A DNA stretch of 62,239 nucleotides, filler included, from Porpidia crustulata (Eukaryota), in assembly GCA_964255105.1 (NCBI GenBank). It is 2 parts of 2 records of this genome, joined end to end, with 100 filler letters (N's around TTAATTAATTAA, not from the genome) between each part and the next. Parts side by side here need not be neighbours in the genome. Positions count along the whole stretch, not along the records: positions 1 to 31,297 come from CAXUWE010000017.1; 1 more part is not named here. One strand, written 5' to 3'. This document shows, piece by piece, positions 5,149 to 31,397 of this stretch (positions are counted from its first letter, which is position 1; each line of letters begins with the position of its first letter). The notes under the pieces were generated by a model, which was given only the letters and a program-made list of their open reading frames with translations, ran no database searches and had not been told where the DNA came from. The position numbers and the translations under genes were made by a program.

Positions 5149-6200
5149 AACACCGACAGATTGACACAGCCACGACAGCCGAGCGGAAGGATTGACCCGG
5201 GCCCTGCATGCCACCATGTTTAAGCATATTTATATACCTAGATACCTTATCATTAATTTTCTGTATGCGCCCACCAACCCCACATCCATGGATCTTCAGG
5301 TCAGACTGCATGGGAGTTCCTGGGATCACACGAAACAACATCTCGATGCCTCCGGTCTTCGGTGTTGGGTGTGAAGTTCTCCGTCCAATCACTTCCACGG
5401 TTACCCACTCTTCGCTGGGAACTCAATGTTCACAAGTCGTGGAACAGGGACGAATTTTGAGCTGGAAACAGTCGTTGAAATTAAAACGATTACGATAACG
5501 ATAGAGGCGGAGCAGTAGGTAGGCAATTACACCTTAGACATTGCTCAATCATCTTTTTGTATGTTTTATTCTTCTCCTTTGAGACTTAGTAGTTGAATAC
5601 TAGTTTACCTTATAACGTCCCTCCATGGGTGGCGGAAACCCACCTGTGCCGGAATGAATCCGTCATTTAGGCATCTCAATTCTGTCCTCGCAATTCTATC
5701 AAATTATCAAAAATGTAGTTCTATTCTTAAGACATTCCTCTATAGAACGCTGTTGTGCAGCTAGAAAAATACAGCACTTTTGATCGTCCTCTTAATTGTT
5801 CCTTTCGAGCAGCCAGAACTGCATTTGCTTTACACCCCTACTTCACTGTAACAATCTGCAAATTATTAAGTTTCGGAGCATTGAATTGATGATCGTATAA
5901 CAAAAGAAGGTAACTCGAAGCTTTTAAAGACGCTTGGCCCTTGAAAGTATGCATTCCGAATTTATCCTTACAAAGAGGTCGGCGACTTGTCTATGAGAAT
6001 TTCGCGCCCTTCCATTGTTGCGGTATCAGTCACCTAACTCATGGTATTGTATTATACACTATGCCTGATTGACTCGAAGTGTGGCTCACTTTCTAGAAAC
6101 ATCTATCGACGGTCATGTGTCGGGGCTATTTTGGGCAGCCGGGTGTGCCCCGCCCTTATTGTTGTTAGCTGTCTCCCGTATCCTTTCCATCACCACAATC

Positions 6201-7922
6201 ATGCATATGGACCGAGCCAGCCAGGTACTGGCGCAAAGTCTGCCTCCAGATGTACCTAGAACTTGGGCTGCCCTATCAGAAAGGAGCGGTGTCCCTCTCA
6301 CTACGCTCTATTATCGTGCACACAGACGACAGTCCATGCAAGAAAAGGCCCAAGGCCAGCAATACCTTGCCCCAGAGGAAGAGAAGGCCCTCGTTACGTT
6401 TTTGTTACTAATGTCTGATCTTGGGCAACCTGTTCGAGTAAAATACATACCTTCGCTAGCCTTTAGCATCGCCCGCCAGCGGTCTATCGTTACAACGGAT
6501 GGTCCAATCAAGCCTCCAAACAAGAACTGGCCCCGAGCCTTTGGGAAACGCAATCCCGAACTCAAAGCGAGAAGAGTTAGGGCGATAGACTGGAAACGTC
6601 ACGAGAATAATATATATGTGAAAATCACACACTGGTTCGAAGTGATTGGAAGAATTATACAGGATCCGGCCATCCTACGAGAAAACGTATATAACATGGA
6701 CGAGACGGGGGTCATGTTAAGCATGCTCGGCTCCGTCAAAGTCCTTGTAGGTAAGGATGACTTACGAGACTATAGAGGCGCGGGTGTCAAGCGGACAATG
6801 GTATCTGCTATTGAGTGTATTAGTGCAGACGGTAGGTTACTGCTCCCTCTCATAATCTGGCCAGCTTCAACTCACCGAAGCAACTGGACTGCGTACCCAA
6901 CCCCTGGATGGCATTACGCACATTCGGAAAATGGATACAACGACTCCAAAATTAGCTTGGAGTGGCTTACTCGTGTGTTTGATCCCCAAACCAAAGGACC
7001 AGCTAACCAGGGACCACGGGTACTAATCTGTGACGGCTTTGGGTCACATGAGACACTCGAGATCTTAGAGTTTTGCTTTGAAAATAACATTCTCCTATGT
7101 CGTCTCCCCTCCCACACGTCTCACAAGCTCCAGCCCTGTGATGTCGGGGTCTTTGCGCCTTTGAAGACAGCCTATCGCGACGAGGTTGAACGACTGTATC
7201 GAGGAGGTTTGGATACAGTTGGCAAGGAGCATTTTACCTCTCTATACAAGCCTACAAGGGAAAGGTCGTTGACCAAGAGAAACATTATGGCCGGATGGGC
7301 CGCGACTGGTTTGTTTCCGTTTAATCCAGAGAGAGTCCTCCGACATACACCGAAGCCCACTTCTGAACTTACAGTTTCGAAAGCTAATGACGTGTTGTCT
7401 TGTCCGCAAGACCAAGTACTGCAAATGCCTGCAACGCCTGTAACGCCAGTAACAATAGAGGCTCTTACGTCGTTGCATAATCTGATTAAACAGGAGCTTG
7501 ATGAGCCAAATACAGATCGCATACAGAGGCACGTACAGAAGCTTGCAAGTGCCGCCAAGATATCATTCGCCAAACAAACACTGTTTCAGGATCAAAATCG
7601 ATTCTTGTCCAAAATAAATAACGAAGCCAAAGTTCGCCGCTCGACCAGATCAGTGGTCCTAGGGAAGGCGAAGGTGATGAGCTACGAGGACCTTGAGGAG
7701 GCACGAGCAAAGCGTGCTGCGAAGGAGAAAGCTACCACGGGCAAAGGAAAACGCAATTCTAAGCGCAAGAGTCCTATGCCAGAGCCAGAAGTACAGGCGG
7801 GTTCGCCAAAGGTAGTGACGGATTCATCAGTGCCAAAGGACAAAGTGGCGAGGATGAGCGAAGTCGAGCCAGCGAAGACCCTAGGAGCGCCATGGAGGGC
7901 CCCAGTGGCCCGGATGTATTAG
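6201..7922 (+). mobile_element. pogo/Fot1-family DDE transposase, uninterrupted ORF
   Basis: N-terminal HTH/CENP-B-like region; NMDETG, DGFGSH, HKLQPCDVGVF catalytic motifs; no convincing TIR pair found. Confidence 0.92.
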
Positions 7923-8693
7923 GATAGTACTATTAATTCAGGATAACTTTGCGCCGGGAGTTGCACAGGTTATACTATCCATCCCTGAGGTTGAAAGATC
8001 TCTACCGAGCGAAACACCACCCAGATATTTTCCATCTTCACAAGTTTTCGCAATGCACATCCCTTTGTCTGCATCGAACTATAGCGATTTGTTATTGTAA
8101 AGTAGCTTGACAATAATAATTGCTTATCTAAATACAAAATTACTTGACTTTGATTATGGGAAAGTCCCGGCGAAGCTGAGAAATAACAGAAGTGCTAACC
8201 AACGTCCAGAAGCAACTGCCCAAAAATAGACAGCCAGTTTGCGATTCCATGAAGAGTTAAGTTGAATCGGTCTACCATCCATACAACTCTTAAAAGCACG
8301 ACGCAGTTATGTGACATGATGCATCCGGCGCGAAATCGCACATGCTCCGGGAGATTCCAATCTAGCAAAGGCGCAGAAGCCACCAACGCAGGATGGCGCA
8401 GTCTCTGCAAATTCATCGCAAGGTACCGCACAGCGGCAGTCCTCAAAATCCGTTCTCCTATTCTATTCCAGGAGACATTGTCCTCCATCCTACAAAAGCG
8501 CTCTATCGACCGTCCACTACCATCGATACCTTCTTTCGTCCCCGCAACGACACCTCCTCACGCCCAACATGGCGTGTATTCAACGATACGTATGCGACCG
8601 CTGTACGCAAACATGGAGACGTTACAAGGCTCAGGCTCCATCTTCGACAGTCATCCGGGCTACAGAGACTAGTGCACGCGTCGAACGACGTCT

Positions 8694-10848
8694 TTAGATC
8701 CCGAAATGTACATATGGAACCCAATAAAGCGGCGGATCCTCGTATAGTTCGGCTGTTCTTGGAACTCTCGTCGTCGCTTGACCTGAGCGTGGTTGTTCCA
8801 TCGCCGCGGGACCCTCAGCGCGGACGGCGGCCATGCGCTTTGATGTACGGGCTGCACTTTCCAAGTTCCATTGGCTACGAAGATGTCGGCTCGCCTGATG
8901 GAGGCCTTCCGCCACAGAATCGTCGCTCATGTTTCCTCGTTTCATCCACTCGTATGTCATGGCCGCCGCCTCAACGCATGACTGGTCGTTTACCTTCCAC
9001 AACGTGCCGATGACATGCCGGAAACCGGCAAGCTGGCACGCGCCGATCAGATGAAGCGCCTCGTCTGTGAGGTTGTCGTGCTTGGCCTCCCCTGTCCCGC
9101 ACGCCGAGAGGTAAGCAAGGAATGGCGCGCGACTGTGCAGGTTTAGCTCCAACAGACTCCCCACAGTGAGCGGTCCGTCGCTGAGAAGTAGAGAGCTCTT
9201 TGATGGATCCGACGGGTGCGTGAGCCCATGGCCGGCAAAGTGGAAGATTCTGCAGTCTCGTAGCGTGGAGAGGACATTGTCCTGGCGAGCCGATGGTATT
9301 GTTACGTCCAGCTGCATCGATCGGCACAGGCGGCTCAGCTTTGCAATCTCCTCCGGCACATATCGAAGATGATCCTGGTCTGGCGTCATTTCCATGCCTA
9401 CCAGAATAGCCTTATTTACTTCCGGTGCCACCTTCACCCTTGAACGCCGTTGATGGCTTTGAATGAGCGCTCGGATTGAGGAGCTGTATGATGAGATTAC
9501 TCGGTCCAGGACCGTATTGCAGGAGCCGCGAGAAAGATCTCCTGCTGCATGGAGAGGAAACTTGGTGAGAGGTCCGGTGGGAATCCACCATATCCGGGGC
9601 CAACTACCACTCGGCGCTTGGATGAGCCCCAGCGCATCTAGGGCCGGCTTCCCAATTGTGTCCCACAACCATTCTATCAGCTGCTGTTCTGGCTTTTCCA
9701 AGATTGCTGCGCGAGCCCGAACATCTTTGCTGTCTAGGTCAGGGAGCCGTAAAGCCTGGAGCCCGCGTTTCTCGATGATTAGCGCATCGCAGCGGTAGTC
9801 GCTCACGTTGATGACCACGACTGGCCCCGAGACTGCGGCGGCTTTCAGCTCATTCTCCGTCGGGGCCAGGAGAAATCGCTCAAAGCCGGGCAGTCTCCGG
9901 ATGTCTTCGATCATCTGCTCCAGCTTCTGGCCCGTGTTGTGGCGCTGATCAATCCGGCGCGTGACTTCTGCCGGGAGATAGAGATCATCAGATCGACGCG
10001 CCATGGCTGTTGGAGCATCAAGCTGATCCCGAAGGCTGATGTAATCTTCTGCTAACTGGGGATGTTTCTGCTGGAGATCGAAGATATCCGCGCGTAGTTC
10101 GTTGAGAGAGGCCGCAATGATCCCACGGCCAAGTTCCAAAAGTTGGATCGCCTCATATGATGATTTCGCCACCATCAGAGCGATTGCTGCCGCGTCAGAA
10201 GCCAAGCCAGCAACTTCAGTGAGCAAGTTTTGCCTATCTGAAGTCTCGAGAGAGCGAGTTGTAAGTAGGGCGATCAGAGACACCGTGGTAGAGGCAGTTC
10301 CGTGGGCCAATAACCAGTCTTCAGCTTCGGCATGCAACCTAGTTACAAGAACACCAGATCTTAGCCTATCAAGAGTATGAGACGTGTGATGATCAAGGGA
10401 TTCTTGGAACTGTTGAATGGCTGCGTCTAGATCTGCCTCTGTTCCTTTTCTATGATATCTANNNNNNNNNNNNNNNNNNNNNNNNNNNNNNNNNNNNNNN
10501 NNNNNNNNNNNNNNNNNNNNNNNNNNNNNNNNNNNNNNNNNNNNNNNNNNNNNNNNNNNNNTGATCGTCTGACGTCAATCTAATAGATTCTAAGAACTGT
10601 TGAATGGCTGCGTCTAGATCTGCCTCTGTTCCTTTTCTATGATATCTATCTCGATATCCAATCCCGAGGCTTTGAAGTCGACCCGCTCGTTCTGGATGAT
10701 CGTCTGACGTCAATCTAATAGATTCTAAGAACTGTTGAATGGCTGCGTCTAAGTCTTCCATATCTCGTTTCTTTCTTTTACTGATGATATTCGCTTTCTG
10801 TCGAATATTTAAAGTCGTATTGAAGGCTGATTTAGACTGTAGGCTCAC
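8694..10848 (-). CDS. TPR-repeat + CHAT (caspase HetF-associated) protease; spans assembly gap, 5' end uncertain
   Basis: RIWWIPTGPLTKFPLHAAG, VISSYSSS, FHFAGHG (His), YLSACGTG (Cys), AGFRHVIGTLW, WVPYVHFG; upstream 45-aa TPR-like repeats DLDAAIQQF. Confidence 0.9.
10400..10760 (-). repeat. Near-identical 135-bp (45-aa) coding tandem repeats
   Basis: tgatcgtctgacgtcaatctaatagattctaagaactgttgaatggctgcgtcta at 10562 and 10697; a further copy of part of the unit lies left of the gap (~10408-10461). Confidence 0.88.
10462..10561. other. Assembly gap (100 N) inside the TPR array
   Basis: N run flanked by repeat copies. Confidence 0.97.
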
Positions 10849-12314
10849 TTTTGAAGACGAACAGATATGCTTCTAGTGCTTAACTTATGGTCGGAACGTC
10901 GTTCTGCCCTCTAGAGATTCTTCCTTATCTAGGAAAGAGTGATTGCGGCTCTAGGTAGGTCATGAAAAAGGCTGCAACAGTATTAATGTACGTGTACCAG
11001 GTAACCAGACGCGCTGGTGAAGCATCGTCCCAACGTTACGGTTCTGATGGGGTAAATGGCCAGGGCACTCGACGAACAGAAGCCTGTCGTTCTTTATACA
11101 CCTGCTAGAGGTAGCCCCACGTGAGGCTAACACGGACGGAGCTCGAGCATAAGACATTGTCTAAGCGTGCTTATACCCGAGTGCCTTGGAGCTAGGCAGA
11201 CGTTGGGAAGATAAGGCGCTACGCTGTCTGGATCTAGAATGTTAGGTAGTTGCTAATGGGTAGAATTCACGGAACGACACGTCATTACTGTACAAGAATG
11301 GGAGCCCCTCTTCCTCCATTAGGATAACGCTGGAGACGCAGCCGCGAAGGGACCTTCGGCATCTTGCGATAGCCGTTGCCATCCTTGCTTGTAACTTAGA
11401 GGCTGACCACCTAGACCGCTCACCGCACACTTCGGCGATTTAATCGTGGCTACAGTAGGTGGCTTCCACAGACTCATCTTTGACTTACTGGAGGCTTGAT
11501 GCACGCGAGCCTCTTTCTTTTTCGTGGATGCGCACCTCCGAAACGTTTCCTGTCGCCAATGGCTAGTCGATGCTCGCCAGGACTGCGAGGAATTTTAGGT
11601 CTGTCTTCCGATTCATACACTCATGTCAGCCGTTTCTAGGGGGTTTAGCATTGACTGCAGCCACTAGTGATTCGTCAATGGCGCAGGGCGTCGACTGCGC
11701 CCGCGCATTCGCTGCTTGCCCTCGGTTGGGTCTGGACCCTTGTGACGGCAACGCTGGGCTGACTCGAGGGCGCACTACTGTACAGCAGCTTACCCACAGA
11801 CCAGTACTTGTAGAGTATCCAAGGTACCTCTTACTAGACAGACACGCACAAAGATAAGTCAGGCACAATGCCGTATGGAAGTGGATGATCAGCACTTAAG
11901 TGTCTAGCATGTAGTTGGGGCCGTCGAGTCAACTACGTGCCACAAGAACAGCAATGCATTTACCCGACGCAGCGGTTTCCGGCCGGGCAGGCTGCTCAAT
12001 TTCGTATTTTTACGCTATGTAGGGCGGCTTTTGTCGCGCTGTTTCATCATGAGCTTCCTACAAATGTACTGGAGAGTTGTACTTTATCACTTGGGTAAGT
12101 GGCCTACTCGCAGGCTCCGCAAAAGACCGCATGTATGCAGTGAGATGCCTGAATGATCTCTCACGTGCCTAGATACGTTGCAAGCCCACGCACTTCTATC
12201 GTGCTACCATTTGGGTTACTTCTCACACTTTGTTAACCTATACGCCCATATAAAACCCTGATTACTTGATCTGTTTTCCATACTAGAGCCGGTATATATC
12301 CTTGCTGCTGGTTC

Positions 12315-13392
12315 TTAGTTTTGTATCGCAGTAGTTTGAGAAACAAACACAACGAGAACAGTAGCATATCTGTACAGCTCGGTCAGCTGTTCATATCGCT
12401 CTGAGCAGCTCAGCACTAACGTAGCCCCTGCGAGGATCAAGTCTATCGTCCTCGACTTTGTCAACCAAGAGAGAATAAGGAGGTACGAGATCGTGCACAG
12501 CACAACGATGACGATCCGGACTGAGATGGTGCTGATTAGACTGCATATGATGACCGGCATCATTAGGAGAAGCGCGATCAAAGAAAACAGTATCGCCTTC
12601 GCGGTACGCTGAATAAGGGGTCCCCGGTAGATGTACACATTTGGATTAGTCGAGATGTCGTGAAATCGGCTCTAGACTCGTAAGCCAAACTACACGTCGA
12701 GTGGTTGCCCCTTCGTCACATTCTTACACTTCGAAAACCCTGCCAGTATTGTACCAGCTTGTCTTCTACCCATGTTTCGAGCTGCAGGACCGCACTGTCC
12801 ACTACGGGTGCCAGAGAAGCCAGATCGCTATGGTACGCTAGATATGCTGTCTCCTCCCGAGCCAGGTAGCCCGTCGCTTCCACCCAGTTCTGCAGGCTTG
12901 CTATGTCTCTCCCCTCCGCTGGCTGTAGGCAAAATATCCGGCTAGTTCTCTCGACGAATTGATCTAGCTCTATCAGTCCAATCTATAAGTTCTTTGCTTC
13001 ACTTACCATAGTCGGCCATCGCTGCTTCAATCTCGGATAGCGTAGAAAGACGGTCTCTATTTCCATCGCAACGGCTTTTCCCAAGGAAGAGAAGGGACGT
13101 TTCCTCTGCGTCAATCCGCTCTAAACGTTTCTCGAGTAGGGATAATCTGTCTTGTTTTAATAATACGATTCGAGCCCGGAGCTTGTCGAAGCGACGGCAT
13201 ATCAACCAGGGGCGATGGGTTGAGAGAAGCGCAGTGAACCGAGGATACCCAGCCTCGTACTCTTCAACTGCATATCATTAGCAGATGGAGCTGATACTCA
13301 AGTTACATACTTTTACCCGTCTCCAGGTCGGTCGTAGTCGTCCTCTTATGACGCTGCCAGCACTGAAGATAATAACGAAAGAGCGCTATCAT
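12315..13392 (-). CDS. DUF6594-like membrane protein with C-terminal TM helices, 5 exons
   Basis: Spliced reading MIALF...IEEYEAGYPRFTALLS...ICRRFDKLRARIVLLKQDRLSLLEKRLERID...SLQNWVE...LLLMMPVII...LAGATYATVLVVFVS; introns 13268-13310 and 12964-13006 plus two more, all GT..AG. Confidence 0.8.
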
Positions 13393-14520
13393 CGTGCCTC
13401 TTTTTGTTTTATAAACACAACCTCCAGTGTCTTCATTCCTAGGTGGAGGCAATTGAGATTGTATGCCTGAATGTATTTATTTGATAAGTTTGCAAGGCTG
13501 AGGCAGGCTGATACAGACTGAGGCATTGGAAACAGGAGTGGGGCTTCTCCCCAATAAGCCTGCATGTTAATTCTGAAGGCGGTTCCGGGGCGGAGCATGA
13601 ACGAGCATGAACACTATCGGAACGCCTCGCCGGCTTTTCTCGACAGCTGGATGACCTACAATCCATATTATAAGTATTAGGATGCTTCATTGAATAGTAT
13701 CCATATTATTGCACCTCATTTACAGATACCTGCTCTTAAACCAAAAAGCAAGCAACTATGTCATCCCAAGAGTACGCAGCCATCACTCATCCTAACCTGT
13801 CCGTACTTACATGTAGAATAGGAAGGAAAAGGACAAATTCACCTTCACCGATGAGGAAGACCGTCCCTACATCGCACACTCTAGTGTTAGTGCTCTGTCC
13901 ACAGTTTACCGGAGCGTGCTAATGTCATGTTAGGCTTCCGAATTTCGCGTTGGGGATAGAGTGTATCTTGTGGGTTCTGACGGATCTCGCGATGGTCCCT
14001 TCCTCGTGGCATCAATCTGCCCGGGGCAACAATGTACCCTAAGTTTCGAGAACGGCAAGGCTGCCAAGGACGGTGAGGAGATCAAGATGGCGAAGCTGGA
14101 GGCTGCGTGAGAACCGTGGGGCATCCGGCGCATCCAATGATACCTTTCCACGTCAGCAGCGGAAAGCCTAGCTAGGCGATATGAATGCGAACCGTATCAC
14201 TCCTTCGCAGCCGCAGTTTCGATGCATCCTGCAGCTTCTTGTCCAACAGGGCGCATTTGTCGCTCTATCGTAGCCACTCCTCCCTAAATGCGTGTATTGT
14301 GTAGACTTGGTTTTTAAGCCTCGTAACGTTACACAGCGAAGCGGGACGTGCCGCCCACGCCTCGCCCCCGTAGACCACCGTGTCTACCACCGCCGTTTCC
14401 CCAACTCTTCAATATGATAAACACTCTGTTTTCGAGCCATTGAAATCTAGGCCAAATCTTCTGTTGTACATATACGTATCGAGCATCTTTCGCCACACGC
14501 ACGCAGCAAATCCTGCCATA

Positions 14521-16413
14521 ATGGATGGCCAGCACACTATCCCTACACATTACGCAATCCTGATTGGTATCAACGCCTACCCGAATAGTCCCCTGGAGAG
14601 CTGCGTACGTGATGTCCAGAAGATTAAAGAATGCCTCGAGAGCAAACTACCTTCGGTCGACATCCAGACTCTCACGGCAAGCGGCGGCGATACGCCACTC
14701 GAACATCCCGAAAGCTGGCCAACTTATCGCAACATGACTTCGGCTCTTGAGATGGTCACGTCCCGAGCGCAACCTGGAGACTTCATCTACATCCACTACT
14801 CTGGCCATGGGACTAGATTAGACCCGTGCTATGAGCTCTCGAGCCAGTCGACCGGAGACTTAGCTTTGGTTCTCCTGGATGAGGATAGTAGCCGGGTGAG
14901 GTTACTACCTGGGCCGCGACTAGCTGGCCTTCTCAAATCCATGGTAGACAAAGCACTGGTCATCTCTCTCGTTCTGGATTGCTGCTTCTCGGCGAGCGTT
15001 TACCGTAATAGTGACCCTAATGTTCGATACCTTTCATGCGGCCGCATTGGCGCATTGACATATCCTCCGATTCCGGAATATGGTCTCGCAGACGGGAACA
15101 CTCGTTCTACGAGCCGCGATGCATCGATGCGCGATAATTGGCTCCTGGACCCGGACCAGTATACTATACTCGCTGCGTGCGGGCCACACGAAAAGGCTAA
15201 GGGTGGGTCTGAAAAAAGTGAGAAGGGGGAACGTTACGGAGCTTTGTCGTACTTCTTGTTCAAAGCCTTGTCCGACCACGGGCTTGGGAGGCGACACAAG
15301 GATATCCACCATCATTTGTGCACCAAATTCTGGGAATCTTGCCAAGCGCAACATCCCGTCTTGTATGGAAATAAGGATCAGGCTTTCTTTGGCCGGACCG
15401 ACCCATACCGTAATACGAGATTCACGAGCATCTTCAAATGTGACAAGAGCCATCGGCTCCTGGCCGGCCTGGCTCACGGTCTTCGTGTTGGTGATCGCTT
15501 CGCATTGTCTCCCTTTGGCCCGTCAAGCGATCGAGACGTCGAGGGAAACTTCACCGCGAATGTCACCCACCTCTGGCCTCTTACATCCGAGTTGGAGCTA
15601 TTAGGCACTCCACATAGCCTTCAAACGGGATGGATCGCGGAACCGCTCACTTACTCGTATCTCTCGGACTTCCCCGTTCGGCTGGCACCTGAGCTTTCAC
15701 ACCAAGATGAATGGCGGGCAGCGCTGGAGGAACACTCACTCGTTACTTGTATCGACAATGAACAAGATCCAGCGCTGCAGGTCGTGCTAAGCAACAACAA
15801 ATACGAAATACTAGAGTATGGCCGGAAGATCATCAATCTGCCGGCGATGCCGCGAGACCAAACGGACACTAGTCGCGTCTGTAATATCTTAGAGCACTTA
15901 GCTAGGTTCCGAATGGCCAAGGACATAGCCAATGAAATGCCTAGAGCTGCTTTCAGAGAGTCGCTCGACATTGAGATAAGAGCAAACAAAAAGGCTTCTA
16001 ACCCAGGGGAACAATTAGAAGTGCAGCACGGCAATATTGTGGAACTGGTCATGAAAAATGCAGGAGAAACCGCGTTATACGTTTACGTGTTCAACCTAGG
16101 TCCTTTATGGCAGGTTAAGGGGATGTCTTATGAAGTCATTCCTGAGCGTAACCACGACCACGACTTGAAATTTACAGGGATATCTTCAAAGAAGATCAAG
16201 ATGACAGTTCCTCCTGCGATGAGTGGGTATGGCTCGTGTGAGGATATCATTAAGGTCTTCGTCACGTCCCAGCCGACATCTTTTGATTCGCTTGAGCTAC
16301 CAAATCTTGATGAACTAGGCAAGACAAATGTCGGAGATAGGACTAATCGTCCTAATAACCATGAATCAGAGGATTGGGTGGCTTTAAACTTTCCTATCCG
16401 CACGCTGTTGTAA
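14521..16413 (+). CDS. Peptidase C14 caspase/metacaspase-like protein with long C-terminal extension, intronless
   Basis: HYAILIGINAY, CVRDV, IHYSGHG (His), VLDCCFS (Cys), LAACGPHE, YGALSYFL, QHPVLYG. Confidence 0.9.
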   Translation: MDGQHTIPTHYAILIGINAYPNSPLESCVRDVQKIKECLESKLPSVDIQTLTASGGDTPLEHPESWPTYRNMTSALEMVTSRAQPGDFIYIHYSGHGTRLDPCYELSSQSTGDLALVLLDEDSSRVRLLPGPRLAGLLKSMVDKALVISLVLDCCFSASVYRNSDPNVRYLSCGRIGALTYPPIPEYGLADGNTRSTSRDASMRDNWLLDPDQYTILAACGPHEKAKGGSEKSEKGERYGALSYFLFKALSDHGLGRRHKDIHHHLCTKFWESCQAQHPVLYGNKDQAFFGRTDPYRNTRFTSIFKCDKSHRLLAGLAHGLRVGDRFALSPFGPSSDRDVEGNFTANVTHLWPLTSELELLGTPHSLQTGWIAEPLTYSYLSDFPVRLAPELSHQDEWRAALEEHSLVTCIDNEQDPALQVVLSNNKYEILEYGRKIINLPAMPRDQTDTSRVCNILEHLARFRMAKDIANEMPRAAFRESLDIEIRANKKASNPGEQLEVQHGNIVELVMKNAGETALYVYVFNLGPLWQVKGMSYEVIPERNHDHDLKFTGISSKKIKMTVPPAMSGYGSCEDIIKVFVTSQPTSFDSLELPNLDELGKTNVGDRTNRPNNHESEDWVALNFPIRTLL

Positions 16414-29503: not shown

Positions 29504-31012
29504 GCTAGCACCTCCGTCATCCCAGAAGTTCCTGAGTTACGTTACAGGTGGGTATACATGAAATTTGACCTTACCTTCAACGGTGAAACTAAGTAATACA
29601 GGATGGCTGATGGTTGTTGCCTGGCAAGCTTCTGCCGCGGGTCTCGGATACATTTCCGGTACTATCATTCAGGGGCTCATCGCGCTGAATAATCCGAACT
29701 ACATCTTCGAGCGATGGCATGGTACCCTACTGTTCTGGGCTTGTACGCTTTTCGCAGTGTCGGTAAACACATGCATTGGCCTCTTCCTCCCCGCGATTGA
29801 AAGATTTATCCTGATACTACATCTTTTTGGATTTTTCGTCATTCTTGTCCCAATGGTATATCTAGGACCTCACGGTTCCAGCGCAGATGTTTTTACTCAA
29901 TTTTTGAATAAAGGGAATTGGAGCACTCAGGGGTTATCGTTGTTTGTAGGACTTAGTGGGAATGTGTTTTCTTTGCTTGGTATGTCAAATTTCTATGTGA
30001 AATTATGTGTTGGTTGTAATTAACGCATTCCCGTAGGCGCGGATGGTGCTGTCCACGTATAGCGTCCTATACTTGATTTGAACACTAAATATTCATGCTG
30101 ATGCACGCTCTAGATGTGCGAAGAAATCCACAACGCCTCGACAGTGGTTCCACAATCCATTCTCCTGAGCCTAGGCATCAACGGCGCTCTAGGATTCGGG
30201 ATACTTATCGCCGTACTATACTGTCTTGGGGACATCCAGACTGTGCTTGATACATCGACCGGATATCCTTTCATAGAGATATTTCTCCAAGCTACAAACT
30301 CCATTCCAGGAACCTCGATCATGGTGGCTATCGTTCTTATCCTAGGTATCTGTTCCGAGATCGCGCTGCTAGCGGCCTCGTCCAGGATGATGTGGGCCTT
30401 TGCTCGTGACCGAGGGCTTCCCGGATGGCGGATGCTGAGCAAGGTAACGACTGCCCTCAAGTTTCTCACCCTCCGTGCAGTCGTATCCTTTCAGATTTAC
30501 AAAAGCTAAGCATATATTTCCCACAGATTGAGACTCGCAGCGCCATCCCCATCCCAGCCGTCATCGCAACCACCCTCATCTCCTGCATCCTCGCCCTCAT
30601 TAGCATCGGTTCCTCCATCGTCTTAATCGACATGATTAGCATCGCCGTCAGCTGTCTATACTCATCATACCTCATATGCTGCTGCCTTCTCCTCTGGCGC
30701 CGCTGTACTGGGATCATCCGAGCACGCTCCGACGGCCCAAATCAGCTGGCCAACACCGCCGGCGGCGCCCAATTAGTTTGGGGCTCGTGGCGGTTGCCGG
30801 CCGCTTTCGGCGTCGTCAACAATGCGTTTGCTTGCATGTATTTGGCGGTGCTGCTGTTCTTCACCTTTTGGCCGCCGGATGCGGCGTCGACTCTGGAGAC
30901 GATAAACTTTGCGGTGTTGACCACGGGAACGGTGGTGGGTTTCAGCGTTGTGTACTATCTTGTGTGGGCGCGTAAATGTTATACAGGACCGATTGTTGAA
31001 ATTCGTTTGTAG
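28905..31012 (+). CDS. Amino-acid/GABA/choline permease (APC superfamily), multi-exon; truncated duplicate of 5' part starts at 28233
   Basis: LAKVGKKQVLKRRFGF, GGPAGLVYG, AEMASMAPTSGGQYHWV, WHGTLL, HMCEEIHNA, SRMMWAFARDRGLP. Confidence 0.88.
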
Positions 31013-31297: not shown

Positions 31298-31397
31298 NNN
31301 NNNNNNNNNNNNNNNNNNNNNNNNNNNNNNNNNNNNNNNNNTTAATTAATTAANNNNNNNNNNNNNNNNNNNNNNNNNNNNNNNNNNNNNNNNNNNN
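31298..31397. other. Assembly gap with artificial TTAATTAATTAA linker (31342-31353)
   Basis: Six-frame-stop 12-mer centred in an N run. Confidence 0.93.

Follow-up and report, generated by a model that had tools for sequence, protein, structure and literature searches.

A four-gene cluster of two proteases, a DUF6594 membrane protein and a small conserved protein recurs across filamentous ascomycetes

Clusters that encode a protease beside a membrane-damaging protein are an emerging logic of fungal regulated cell death, and to our knowledge the only ones worked out so far employ gasdermins (with S8 or CHAT proteases) or HeLo-type effectors. Here, we ask whether a locus of Porpidia crustulata (GenBank assembly GCA_964255105.1), in which two clan-CD proteases lie on either side of a membrane-protein gene, belongs to a further cluster of this kind, and we describe its genes, their recurrence in other fungi and the properties predicted for their products. 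The locus occupies positions 8694-16413 of the window, by which we mean the whole stretch of DNA that was analysed (62,239 nucleotides, being two parts of two records joined end to end with 100 filler letters between them, of which positions 1 to 31,297 come from CAXUWE010000017.1). An initial annotation of this DNA had proposed a three-gene death or immunity cassette, in which a TPR sensor activates a CHAT protease, which activates a caspase-like protease, which in turn acts on a DUF6594-like membrane effector.

The four genes and their recurrence

The locus holds four genes, not three: a TPR-CHAT protease gene and a DUF6594 gene on the minus strand, followed by a small 84-aa gene and a metacaspase-like Peptidase_C14 (C14) gene on the plus strand (Table 1), all intact apart from one assembly gap. 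CHAT, DUF6594 and C14 are linked as first proposed, and a fourth conserved gene between the last two (84 aa, 13758-14110) had been overlooked. Pfam profiles confirm the three domains that had been named, with CHAT (PF12770) at 8697-10460 on the minus strand (E 4e-38, profile positions 2-288 of 289), Peptidase_C14 (PF00656) at 14374-16413 on the plus strand (E 5e-15), and DUF6594 (PF20237) on three minus-strand open reading frame (ORF) pieces in 12315-13274 (E 2e-14, 1e-8 and 2.5e-9). These pieces span profile positions 1-85, 89-155 and 159-233 of 238, and a close relative scanned whole (P0010) matches the same family at E 5e-47; the membrane gene that had been read as fragmented is indeed a small multi-transmembrane gene between the two proteases, and it is an unbroken gene of five exons. 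Both clan-CD proteases are present with the intact dyads first ascribed to them. The CHAT motifs are HFAGHG (His at 9230) and LSACGTG (Cys at 9101), with HFAGHG and SAC.TG invariant in an alignment of 34 CHAT relatives; those of C14 are HYSGHG (His96, at 14806) and LDCCFS (Cys155, at 14983), with His96 (SGHG) and Cys155 (DCC) invariant across 39 relatives. Spliced genes and neighbours typical of Pezizomycotina mark the window as filamentous-ascomycete DNA. Among the matches listed for the C14 and CHAT proteins, the closest named relatives are from the lichen-forming Heterodermia (83%), Letrouitia (82%) and Lasallia (88%). The 365 bp between the start codons of DUF6594 and the small gene are probably a shared bidirectional promoter.

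The layout of DUF6594 (minus), small gene (plus) and C14 (plus), with TPR-CHAT variably beside them, is kept across distant fungi in unrelated neighbourhoods. The co-localisation in other fungal genomes that the initial annotation had put up for checking proved recurrent, both in metagenome loci and in nine named genomes, where the genes have neighbouring locus tags or fused gene models: Trizodia sp. (M1829_003400, C14, beside M1829_003401, a fused DUF6594 + TPR-CHAT model), Clarireedia jacksonii (ACMFMG_005585/6/7, being CHAT, C14 and DUF6594), Fusarium sp. NRRL 66182 (F66182_6054/6055), Endocarpon pusillum (GJ744_004809/004810), Metarhizium acridum (J3459_022262/022263), Cadophora gregata (ONS95_014763/014765), F. 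oxysporum f. sp. rapae (v015788/v015790), Mollisiaceae sp. (EG329_002866/002869, plus a fusion of small protein and C14, EG329_005914) and Trichoderma ceciliae (all four products on one 946-kb contig). The module is found in tractable fungi, among them Trichoderma and Neurospora tetraspora, and also in lichen fungi. Among the matches listed, at least 20 of 43 DUF6594 relatives have a C14 relative from the same species on a contig of equal length, or at a neighbouring tag, and at least 7 of 43 have a CHAT relative by the same proxy for linkage; the families are large, with 1243 CHAT and 632 C14 relatives found.

A metagenome scan with the C14 alignment yielded 26 loci, 19 of them non-redundant and with a clear C14 gene. 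Twelve loci extend 2.8 kb or more upstream of C14, and 9 of them carry DUF6594, as do two shorter loci; in all 11 it is divergent from C14. In 9 of these 11, the DUF6594 end nearer to C14 is 0.75-1.7 kb away from the C14 start and so within 2.5 kb upstream, where random placement would put 21.5% (binomial 3e-5). The 21.5% is the share of non-C14 bases in this upstream zone, and the calculation treats as trials loci that are related and not independent. Between DUF6594 and C14, 13 of the 19 loci hold the small gene. A CHAT gene was seen in 8 of the 19; most often it follows C14 directly in convergent orientation, and in some loci it adjoins DUF6594, which is its place in the window too. All four genes are found together in four metagenome loci (L012, L018, L019 and L023), as well as in Trizodia, Clarireedia and T. 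ceciliae. DUF6594, the small protein and C14 make up the constant core; of the four members, TPR-CHAT is the one most often missing.

Gene order and divergence are preserved at 36-89% protein identity to the window C14, in unrelated surroundings: around nine clusters the flanking genes (SRP54, flavohaemoglobin, P450, PDDEXK, hydrophobin and others) have no family in common and are unlike those of the window, and no fifth recurrent neighbour was found among the 115 ORFs flanking them. Since the flanking genes differ between loci, the module moves as a unit. These observations bear on the explanation that the genes are neighbours without shared biochemistry, kept together by a bidirectional promoter or by inherited synteny, with products that act independently. 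Such an arrangement would suit the large size of the DUF6594, CHAT and C14 families in these fungi and the C14 relatives that stand alone (L003 and L016), but the same order and divergence recur among unrelated flanks, inherited synteny is disfavoured because it would have kept the flanks too, and a weakly supported interface between the small protein and C14 (see below) also speaks against it; we consider it very improbable. It is highly probable that the module is real and functionally linked. The account that we prefer, with nearly as much confidence as doubt, is that the four genes form one conserved filamentous-ascomycete module for regulated proteolysis at a membrane.

Transcription was followed in polyA metatranscriptome contigs that are 85-99% alike to the window and come from a relative (two runs within one study). 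These contigs, whose RNA is that of the relative and not of the window strain, cover all four genes and reproduce all six predicted introns (joints in Table 1); joint 13267>13311 of DUF6594 was seen in one run only, and a variant, 13268>13319, in both. C14 is covered unspliced by a contig over 14516-16419 and CHAT over 8600-10438, and contigs traverse the intergenic 13393-13757. The orthologous four-gene cluster is thus transcribed in the relative, in contigs that give no ranking of expression levels. Over 13319-13771, a single RNA contig holds spliced DUF6594 exons (minus) together with spliced small-gene exons (plus), which may reflect 5' overlap of the divergent transcripts or a merger by the assembler.

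Table 1. Features of the four-gene locus, in window coordinates
Feature	Position	Strand	Details and basis
TPR-CHAT protease gene	8694..10761	-	single exon; ATG 10761, stop 8694-8696; Pfam, orthologue starts, RNA contigs
Assembly gap, 100 N	10462..10561	.	inside near-identical TPR array
DUF6594 membrane protein gene, 294 aa	12315..13392	-	Pfam, gene model, orthologues, RNA joints
DUF6594 exons	13392-13311, 13267-13007, 12963-12728, 12671-12421, 12369-12315	-	gene model
DUF6594 RNA joints	12369>12421, 12671>12728, 12963>13007, 13267>13311	-	CT..AC (minus strand)
Divergent intergenic region, 365 bp	13393..13757	.	between DUF6594 and small-gene start codons
Small conserved gene, 84 aa	13758..14110	+	RNA joints, translation, family search
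Small-gene exons	13758-13771, 13822-13885, 13934-14110	+	RNA joints
Small-gene RNA joints	13771>13822, 13885>13934	+	GT..AG
Metacaspase-like C14 protease gene, 630 aa	14521..16413	+	single exon; Pfam, alignment, predicted structure, RNA contig

Predicted properties of the four proteins

The second protease, first described as caspase-like, is rather metacaspase-like, with Arabidopsis MC9 and MC4 as its best matches and acidic S1-pocket motifs kept. Its AlphaFold model (predicted local distance difference test, pLDDT, 73.6) has a caspase fold over residues 1-296, with a disordered linker at 157-212 just past Cys155, and a beta-rich half over 300-630 that includes an Ig-like sandwich at about 477-630 (Z ~8.5 to generic sandwiches); residues 300-475 were barely probed in the fold searches, where the caspase domain filled the match lists. 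The fold (residues 8-296) matches AtMC4 with VIA Z 21.4 (root-mean-square deviation 3.5, 226 residues aligned) and AtMC9 with Z 20.1, Foldseek gives E 4e-10 to TbMCA2, and AtMC9 (E 1.7e-10) and AtMC4 are found among the PDB sequence matches as well. In the HMMER alignment, HYSGHGTR is identical and C-x-x-D is aligned (CVRDV with CINDV of AtMC9). Among the pocket residues, Asp153 never varies in 39 sequences, and Cys28 and Asp31 are conserved to 90% or more. Such pocket motifs (C-x-x-D, D-x-C) confer Arg/Lys specificity on metacaspases; since the acidic S1-pocket motifs are kept in C14, cleavage past Arg or Lys, not Asp, would be expected from its sequence. Arg162, Arg169 and Arg199 of the linker are invariant in the C14 relatives.

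Assignment of C14 to a metacaspase type is less simple. The protein starts 9 residues ahead of its first strand and has no N-terminal Pro/Gln-rich prodomain, and all 39 relatives likewise lack one, except in mis-fused gene models; in this they do not fit type I, the fungal kind of metacaspase. Plant type II metacaspases (MC4, MC9) resemble C14 in lacking a prodomain, in HYSGHGTR and C-x-x-D, and in having an insert between the subunits, which in those enzymes is the site of activating self-cleavage. The window C14 differs from them in its shorter linker (157-212, about 55 residues) and in its 330-residue beta-rich C-terminal extension. The MALT1 paracaspase (caspase-Ig3) is also similar, with a caspase fold followed by an Ig-like sandwich and an expected Arg specificity, but the window C14 has neither a death domain nor N-terminal Ig domains, and its Ig-like match (Z ~8.5) is generic. 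Against Pfam (E <= 1), the C-terminal half of C14 gave nothing beyond a chance Ank_4 match, and its Atlas matches are unnamed clusters (0.87-0.90), one with DUF4384 on 22% of its members, which is a lead only. According to the consulted part of PMC13304501, type I metacaspases occur in fungi and type II in plants and green algae only, and the C14 family, being fungal metacaspase-like enzymes outside type I, does not fit that division.

The TPR-CHAT product opens directly with 45-residue TPR units, continues through a helical stretch and then enters the CHAT domain. When aligned, five orthologues have their first residue at the ATG at 10761, which shows that the gene has not lost its 5' end. 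The fused orthologue P0027 scored for TPR-S and TPR_10, which other orthologues carry among their precomputed domains; neither the CHAT nor the C14 product has a Pfam match to an NTPase family (NACHT/NB-ARC), and the precomputed Pfam lists for their relatives contain none. TPR units occur on both flanks of the 100-N gap as 63-nt DNA copies that are 97-100% alike and lie 135 nt apart where the gap does not intervene, and the near-identity of these flanking repeats is probably the reason for the gap. Tandem Repeats Finder reported nothing on the array, which is split by the gap. In the best-covering RNA run the contigs end at 10436 and resume at 10623, and no RNA or DNA contig of the relatives bridges the gap, so that a continuous frame from TPR to CHAT is putative in this copy. 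Short repeat contigs at the gap reach 2-4x the depth of the flanks (RNA, relative), and several further TPR units are probably collapsed there; a continuous orthologue, P0045 (89% identical, 746 aa), has about four. Near-identical repeats of this style are known from fungal NLR-type sensors. In the helical region of the CHAT gene, 39 nt (13 codons, 9978-10016) are missing from both the RNA and the DNA contigs of relatives, which makes this an in-frame interspecies indel and not an intron.

The inconstancy of CHAT bears on the chain that had been proposed for this locus. In its strict form, a linear cascade with every step obligatory, TPR senses a trigger, CHAT cleaves and so activates C14, and C14 cleaves DUF6594, which stands in for gasdermin as the pore-former. 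Two clan-CD proteases with intact dyads in one cluster, a disordered inter-subunit linker in C14 on which an upstream protease could act, and the full four-gene sets named above are all in keeping with such a cascade, and it has precedents in SAVED-CHAT -> PCaspase (bioRxiv 10.1101/2023.06.23.546230) and TPR-CHAT -> gasdermin (PMC8851545), as these are set out in the consulted parts of the two papers. However, many clusters that are otherwise complete lack CHAT (in L009 and L011 it is absent from 10 kb downstream), its position and orientation vary where it is found, and the cascade ignores the small gene, which is more constant. Metacaspases, moreover, usually self-activate. With CHAT in 8 of 19 loci and missing from three of the four well-covered ones, an obligatory chain from TPR through CHAT and C14 to DUF6594 is unlikely to be the general design: the linkage on which it was built is conserved, and we regard the strict cascade as improbable.

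The small protein has an N-terminal tail with a conserved basic residue (..DEEDRP..), followed by a beta-barrel-like domain of about 55 residues. A basic residue is found at this one position of an otherwise variable tail in about 27 of 30 relatives (alignment read by eye). The family stands alone, with 299 representatives at E <= 0.001 that are mostly 80-90 aa long; no Pfam family matched the protein, and its profile found PDB sequences at E 0.065 or worse. An Atlas feature match to 'putative KOW domain' (0.90, with recognition below the mark) makes an SH3/KOW/Tudor-like barrel a lead only, and Hva1_TUDOR, the UniRef label of relative P0300, was rejected after 30 family members and window exon 3 gave no profile match to it at E <= 1. 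Gene models fuse the small protein to C14 (P0180, Mollisiaceae) and to DUF6594 (P0010). When the small protein and C14 of Mollisiaceae P0180 were predicted as a complex, made without alignments, the score was 0.48 against 0.00 for the best of three controls, with runs agreeing on at least 45% of contacts and a partner pLDDT of at least 52. Of 78 solved complexes, 51 reach the mark for such predictions, as do 2 of 108 mismatched pairs, and scores of 0.60 or less comprise 5 of the 78 solved complexes and all 4 passing mismatches (of 180), so that the modelled interface between small protein and C14 receives weak support. MAFFT placed VGDKVYL..SGSREGP of the small protein (13949-14005) on GDFVYIHYSGHGTR..P around the catalytic His of C14 (14785-14830), a likeness that may be a chance strand-plus-loop resemblance.

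The DUF6594 gene has four GT-AG introns (43, 43, 56 and 51 nt), and its product is of typical size, orthologues having 285-296 aa and relatives P0001 and P0002 the same length as the window protein. A helical N-terminal part is followed by three C-terminal hydrophobic (transmembrane) helices, which a low-confidence AlphaFold model of orthologue P0002 places at 211-238, 242-263 and 267-292 (pLDDT 63, pTM 0.40). Residues invariant in 29 orthologues concentrate in the cytosolic N-terminal 110 residues and not in the transmembrane helices, and include a loop, LFLGKSRCDxN..R, that joins two long helices. Against PDB sequences, the DUF6594 profile gave chance-level matches alone (E 0.087 or worse). 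One metagenome copy of the cluster (L001:1-3215, about 90% identical to 12106-15631) has lost about 24 codons in frame (13130-13205), and with them the DUF6594 motif that is most conserved, and also lacks 14045-14273, with the final 22 codons of the small gene; either the cluster is decaying in this copy or the metagenome was misassembled.

Where conservation falls in these two proteins matters for the main rival to regulated proteolysis of a membrane effector, namely non-lethal signalling, in which a protease would free the N-terminal helical domain of DUF6594 or a peptide of the small protein as a damage or stress signal. By analogy, Arabidopsis MC4 frees Pep1 from PROPEP1, and membrane-tethered transcription factors work similarly. 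That the invariant DUF6594 residues are cytosolic, that the small-protein tail keeps a basic residue, that MC4 and MC9 are the best structure and sequence matches of C14, and that RNA contigs from ordinary samples cover the genes are all compatible with a signal of this kind. Set against this, searches of DUF6594 and the small protein (Pfam, PDB profiles) showed neither a DNA-binding nor a signalling domain, and highly alike TPR repeats are more typical of non-self sensors; signalling thus has, in our judgement, a low probability.

A candidate membrane-directed protease module

In the module that we prefer, the metacaspase-like C14 would be the constant central protease, probably Arg/Lys-specific and probably activated by a cut in the disordered linker past Cys155, where Arg162, Arg169 and Arg199 are candidate sites. 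The 84-aa protein may be a bound regulator, pseudo-substrate or substrate of C14, engaged through the basic residue of its tail, and the three-helix DUF6594 protein would be the membrane-embedded target or effector, with the loop LFLGKSRCDxN..R as a candidate cleavage site. TPR-CHAT, where present, would be an optional upstream sensor protease, whose near-identical, fast-evolving TPR repeats could recognise the trigger and which would start the system through cleavage of one of its three partners. By analogy with gasdermin/protease clusters, the likeliest output would be membrane damage or cell death of an immune or allorecognition type. A death or immunity system with DUF6594 as its executioner is possible, and we are more doubtful than confident of it. 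Unlikely as a whole, in our view, is the boldest form of the proposal, in which DUF6594 proteins would be a new class of protease-activated membrane executioners that replace gasdermin, run by a 'type II-like' metacaspase with an Ig-like regulatory half, checked by the 84-aa barrel protein and armed in many species by a hypervariable TPR-CHAT sensor, as a two-tier clan-CD protease pathway of fungal death or immunity.

Several known systems resemble the module in part. In Podospora anserina, a TPR-CHAT protease (Q2L-6) cleaves a clustered gasdermin (Q1-6), and for 19% of 1,884 fungal gasdermins a CHAT gene is encoded no more than 10 kb away, according to the consulted part of PMC8851545. Such gasdermin/HET-Q2-like clusters (HET-Q1/HET-Q2; Q1-6/Q2L-6), as far as the consulted text describes them, are alike in having a TPR + CHAT protease beside a membrane-acting protein, and in being small two- to three-gene clusters found Pezizomycotina-wide, with repeat sensors and no NOD in this type. 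They differ in that their pore-former is soluble with an inhibitory tail, whereas here the DUF6594 protein is integral with three helices and no gasdermin is nearby, and in that the present cluster adds a second, metacaspase-like protease and an 84-aa protein, both more constant than CHAT. No gasdermin family (HET-Q1/RCD-1-like) was found in 31 + 38 ORF translations of the window or among the 115 ORFs flanking nine other clusters, by an ORF-wise Pfam scan that short spliced genes can evade. The type III-B CRISPR system SAVED-CHAT -> PCaspase, in the consulted part of bioRxiv 10.1101/2023.06.23.546230, likewise encodes CHAT and a caspase-like protease together, with a proposed cascade logic, and its structure 8tl0 is among the fold matches of the C14 model. 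That system is bacterial, has a cyclic-oligoadenylate SAVED sensor and is described there without a membrane or small barrel protein; here, in contrast, the putative sensor is a TPR array, the genes are eukaryotic and spliced, and it is we who infer a cascade. The type III-E Craspase (Csx29, Csx30/Csx31/RpoE) shares the TPR-CHAT architecture and a small neighbour protein as protease substrate, but is RNA-guided via Cas7-11, bacterial and without a second protease.

A number of points weigh against our preferred account. That DUF6594 forms pores, in what order the proteins are cut, and that the output is death or immunity are points that we infer. The DUF6594 protein has three ordinary hydrophobic helices, unlike any known pore-former, in a poor model, and the RNA seemingly comes from ordinary lichen samples, which suits a latent executioner and a housekeeping role equally. 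Predicted interfaces of the weak-support grade are, by calibration, more often wrong than right unless the pairing is already likely. Linkage is not universal: CHAT is absent from three of the four loci that reach 9 kb or more in both directions, C14 stands by itself in L003 and L016 although the sequence there extends 9 kb or more each way, and L005 has no DUF6594 within 4.75 kb upstream of C14, while the shared-contig counts are a proxy for linkage only. The deletions in DUF6594 and the small gene of L001 imply that the module can be lost.

If the account holds, the module would add a third kind of membrane partner to the clusters of proteases with membrane-damaging proteins, and would give DUF6594, a large, fungus-specific family with no assigned function, its first functional context. 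C14 and its relatives define a fungal metacaspase-like family outside type I, the sole fungal class in the consulted part of PMC13304501. The proposal is directly testable, with four small genes, known catalytic residues and candidate cleavage sites that can be named, and in lichen fungi the control of cell death may bear on symbiosis. A full-text literature search found no paper with 'DUF6594' or 'PF20237', and a search on fungal CHAT/caspase-like/Peptidase_C14 clusters and metacaspase types (supplements aside) returned nothing on the cluster in the text consulted, being confined to gasdermin work, reviews and bacterial systems (e.g. PMC12881547), which suggests that this fungal cluster, of proteases and a membrane protein, is undescribed.

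Duplicated copies and neighbouring genes

Two copies of module genes are found on different contigs in each of Ilyonectria destructans, Hypoxylon crocopeplum and Mollisiaceae sp.; the cluster seems to have been duplicated within genomes, as immune-type families often are.

Prenyltransferase, nitroreductase, transposase, beta-lactamase and monooxygenase genes make up the window flanks. An intronless 335-aa ORF at 1571-2575 on the minus strand matches PTase_Orf2 (ABBA; a bacterial-type aromatic prenyltransferase) at E 1e-77, and near it lie nitroreductase, FAD monooxygenase, P450, methyltransferase and dehydrogenase ORFs, which suggests that secondary-metabolism genes surround the module. Short N runs at 31298-31341 and 31354-31397 lie downstream of amino-acid permease ORFs (ending at 31009). 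No terminal inverted repeats of at least 18 nt were found in 5500-8700 around an uninterrupted 617-aa ORF (6069-7922, plus strand), which is a pogo/Fot-like transposase (DDE_1 E 1e-29, with a weak Tc5 helix-turn-helix) 0.8 kb from the CHAT stop. On the other side, the first 2.5 kb of the window past 16419 hold no Pfam-recognisable ORF. At this same position, 6 bases beyond the C14 stop, the relatives (two RNA runs and one DNA) diverge from the window while sharing a similar loose-end sequence, and the module edge here carries a rearrangement or an insertion.

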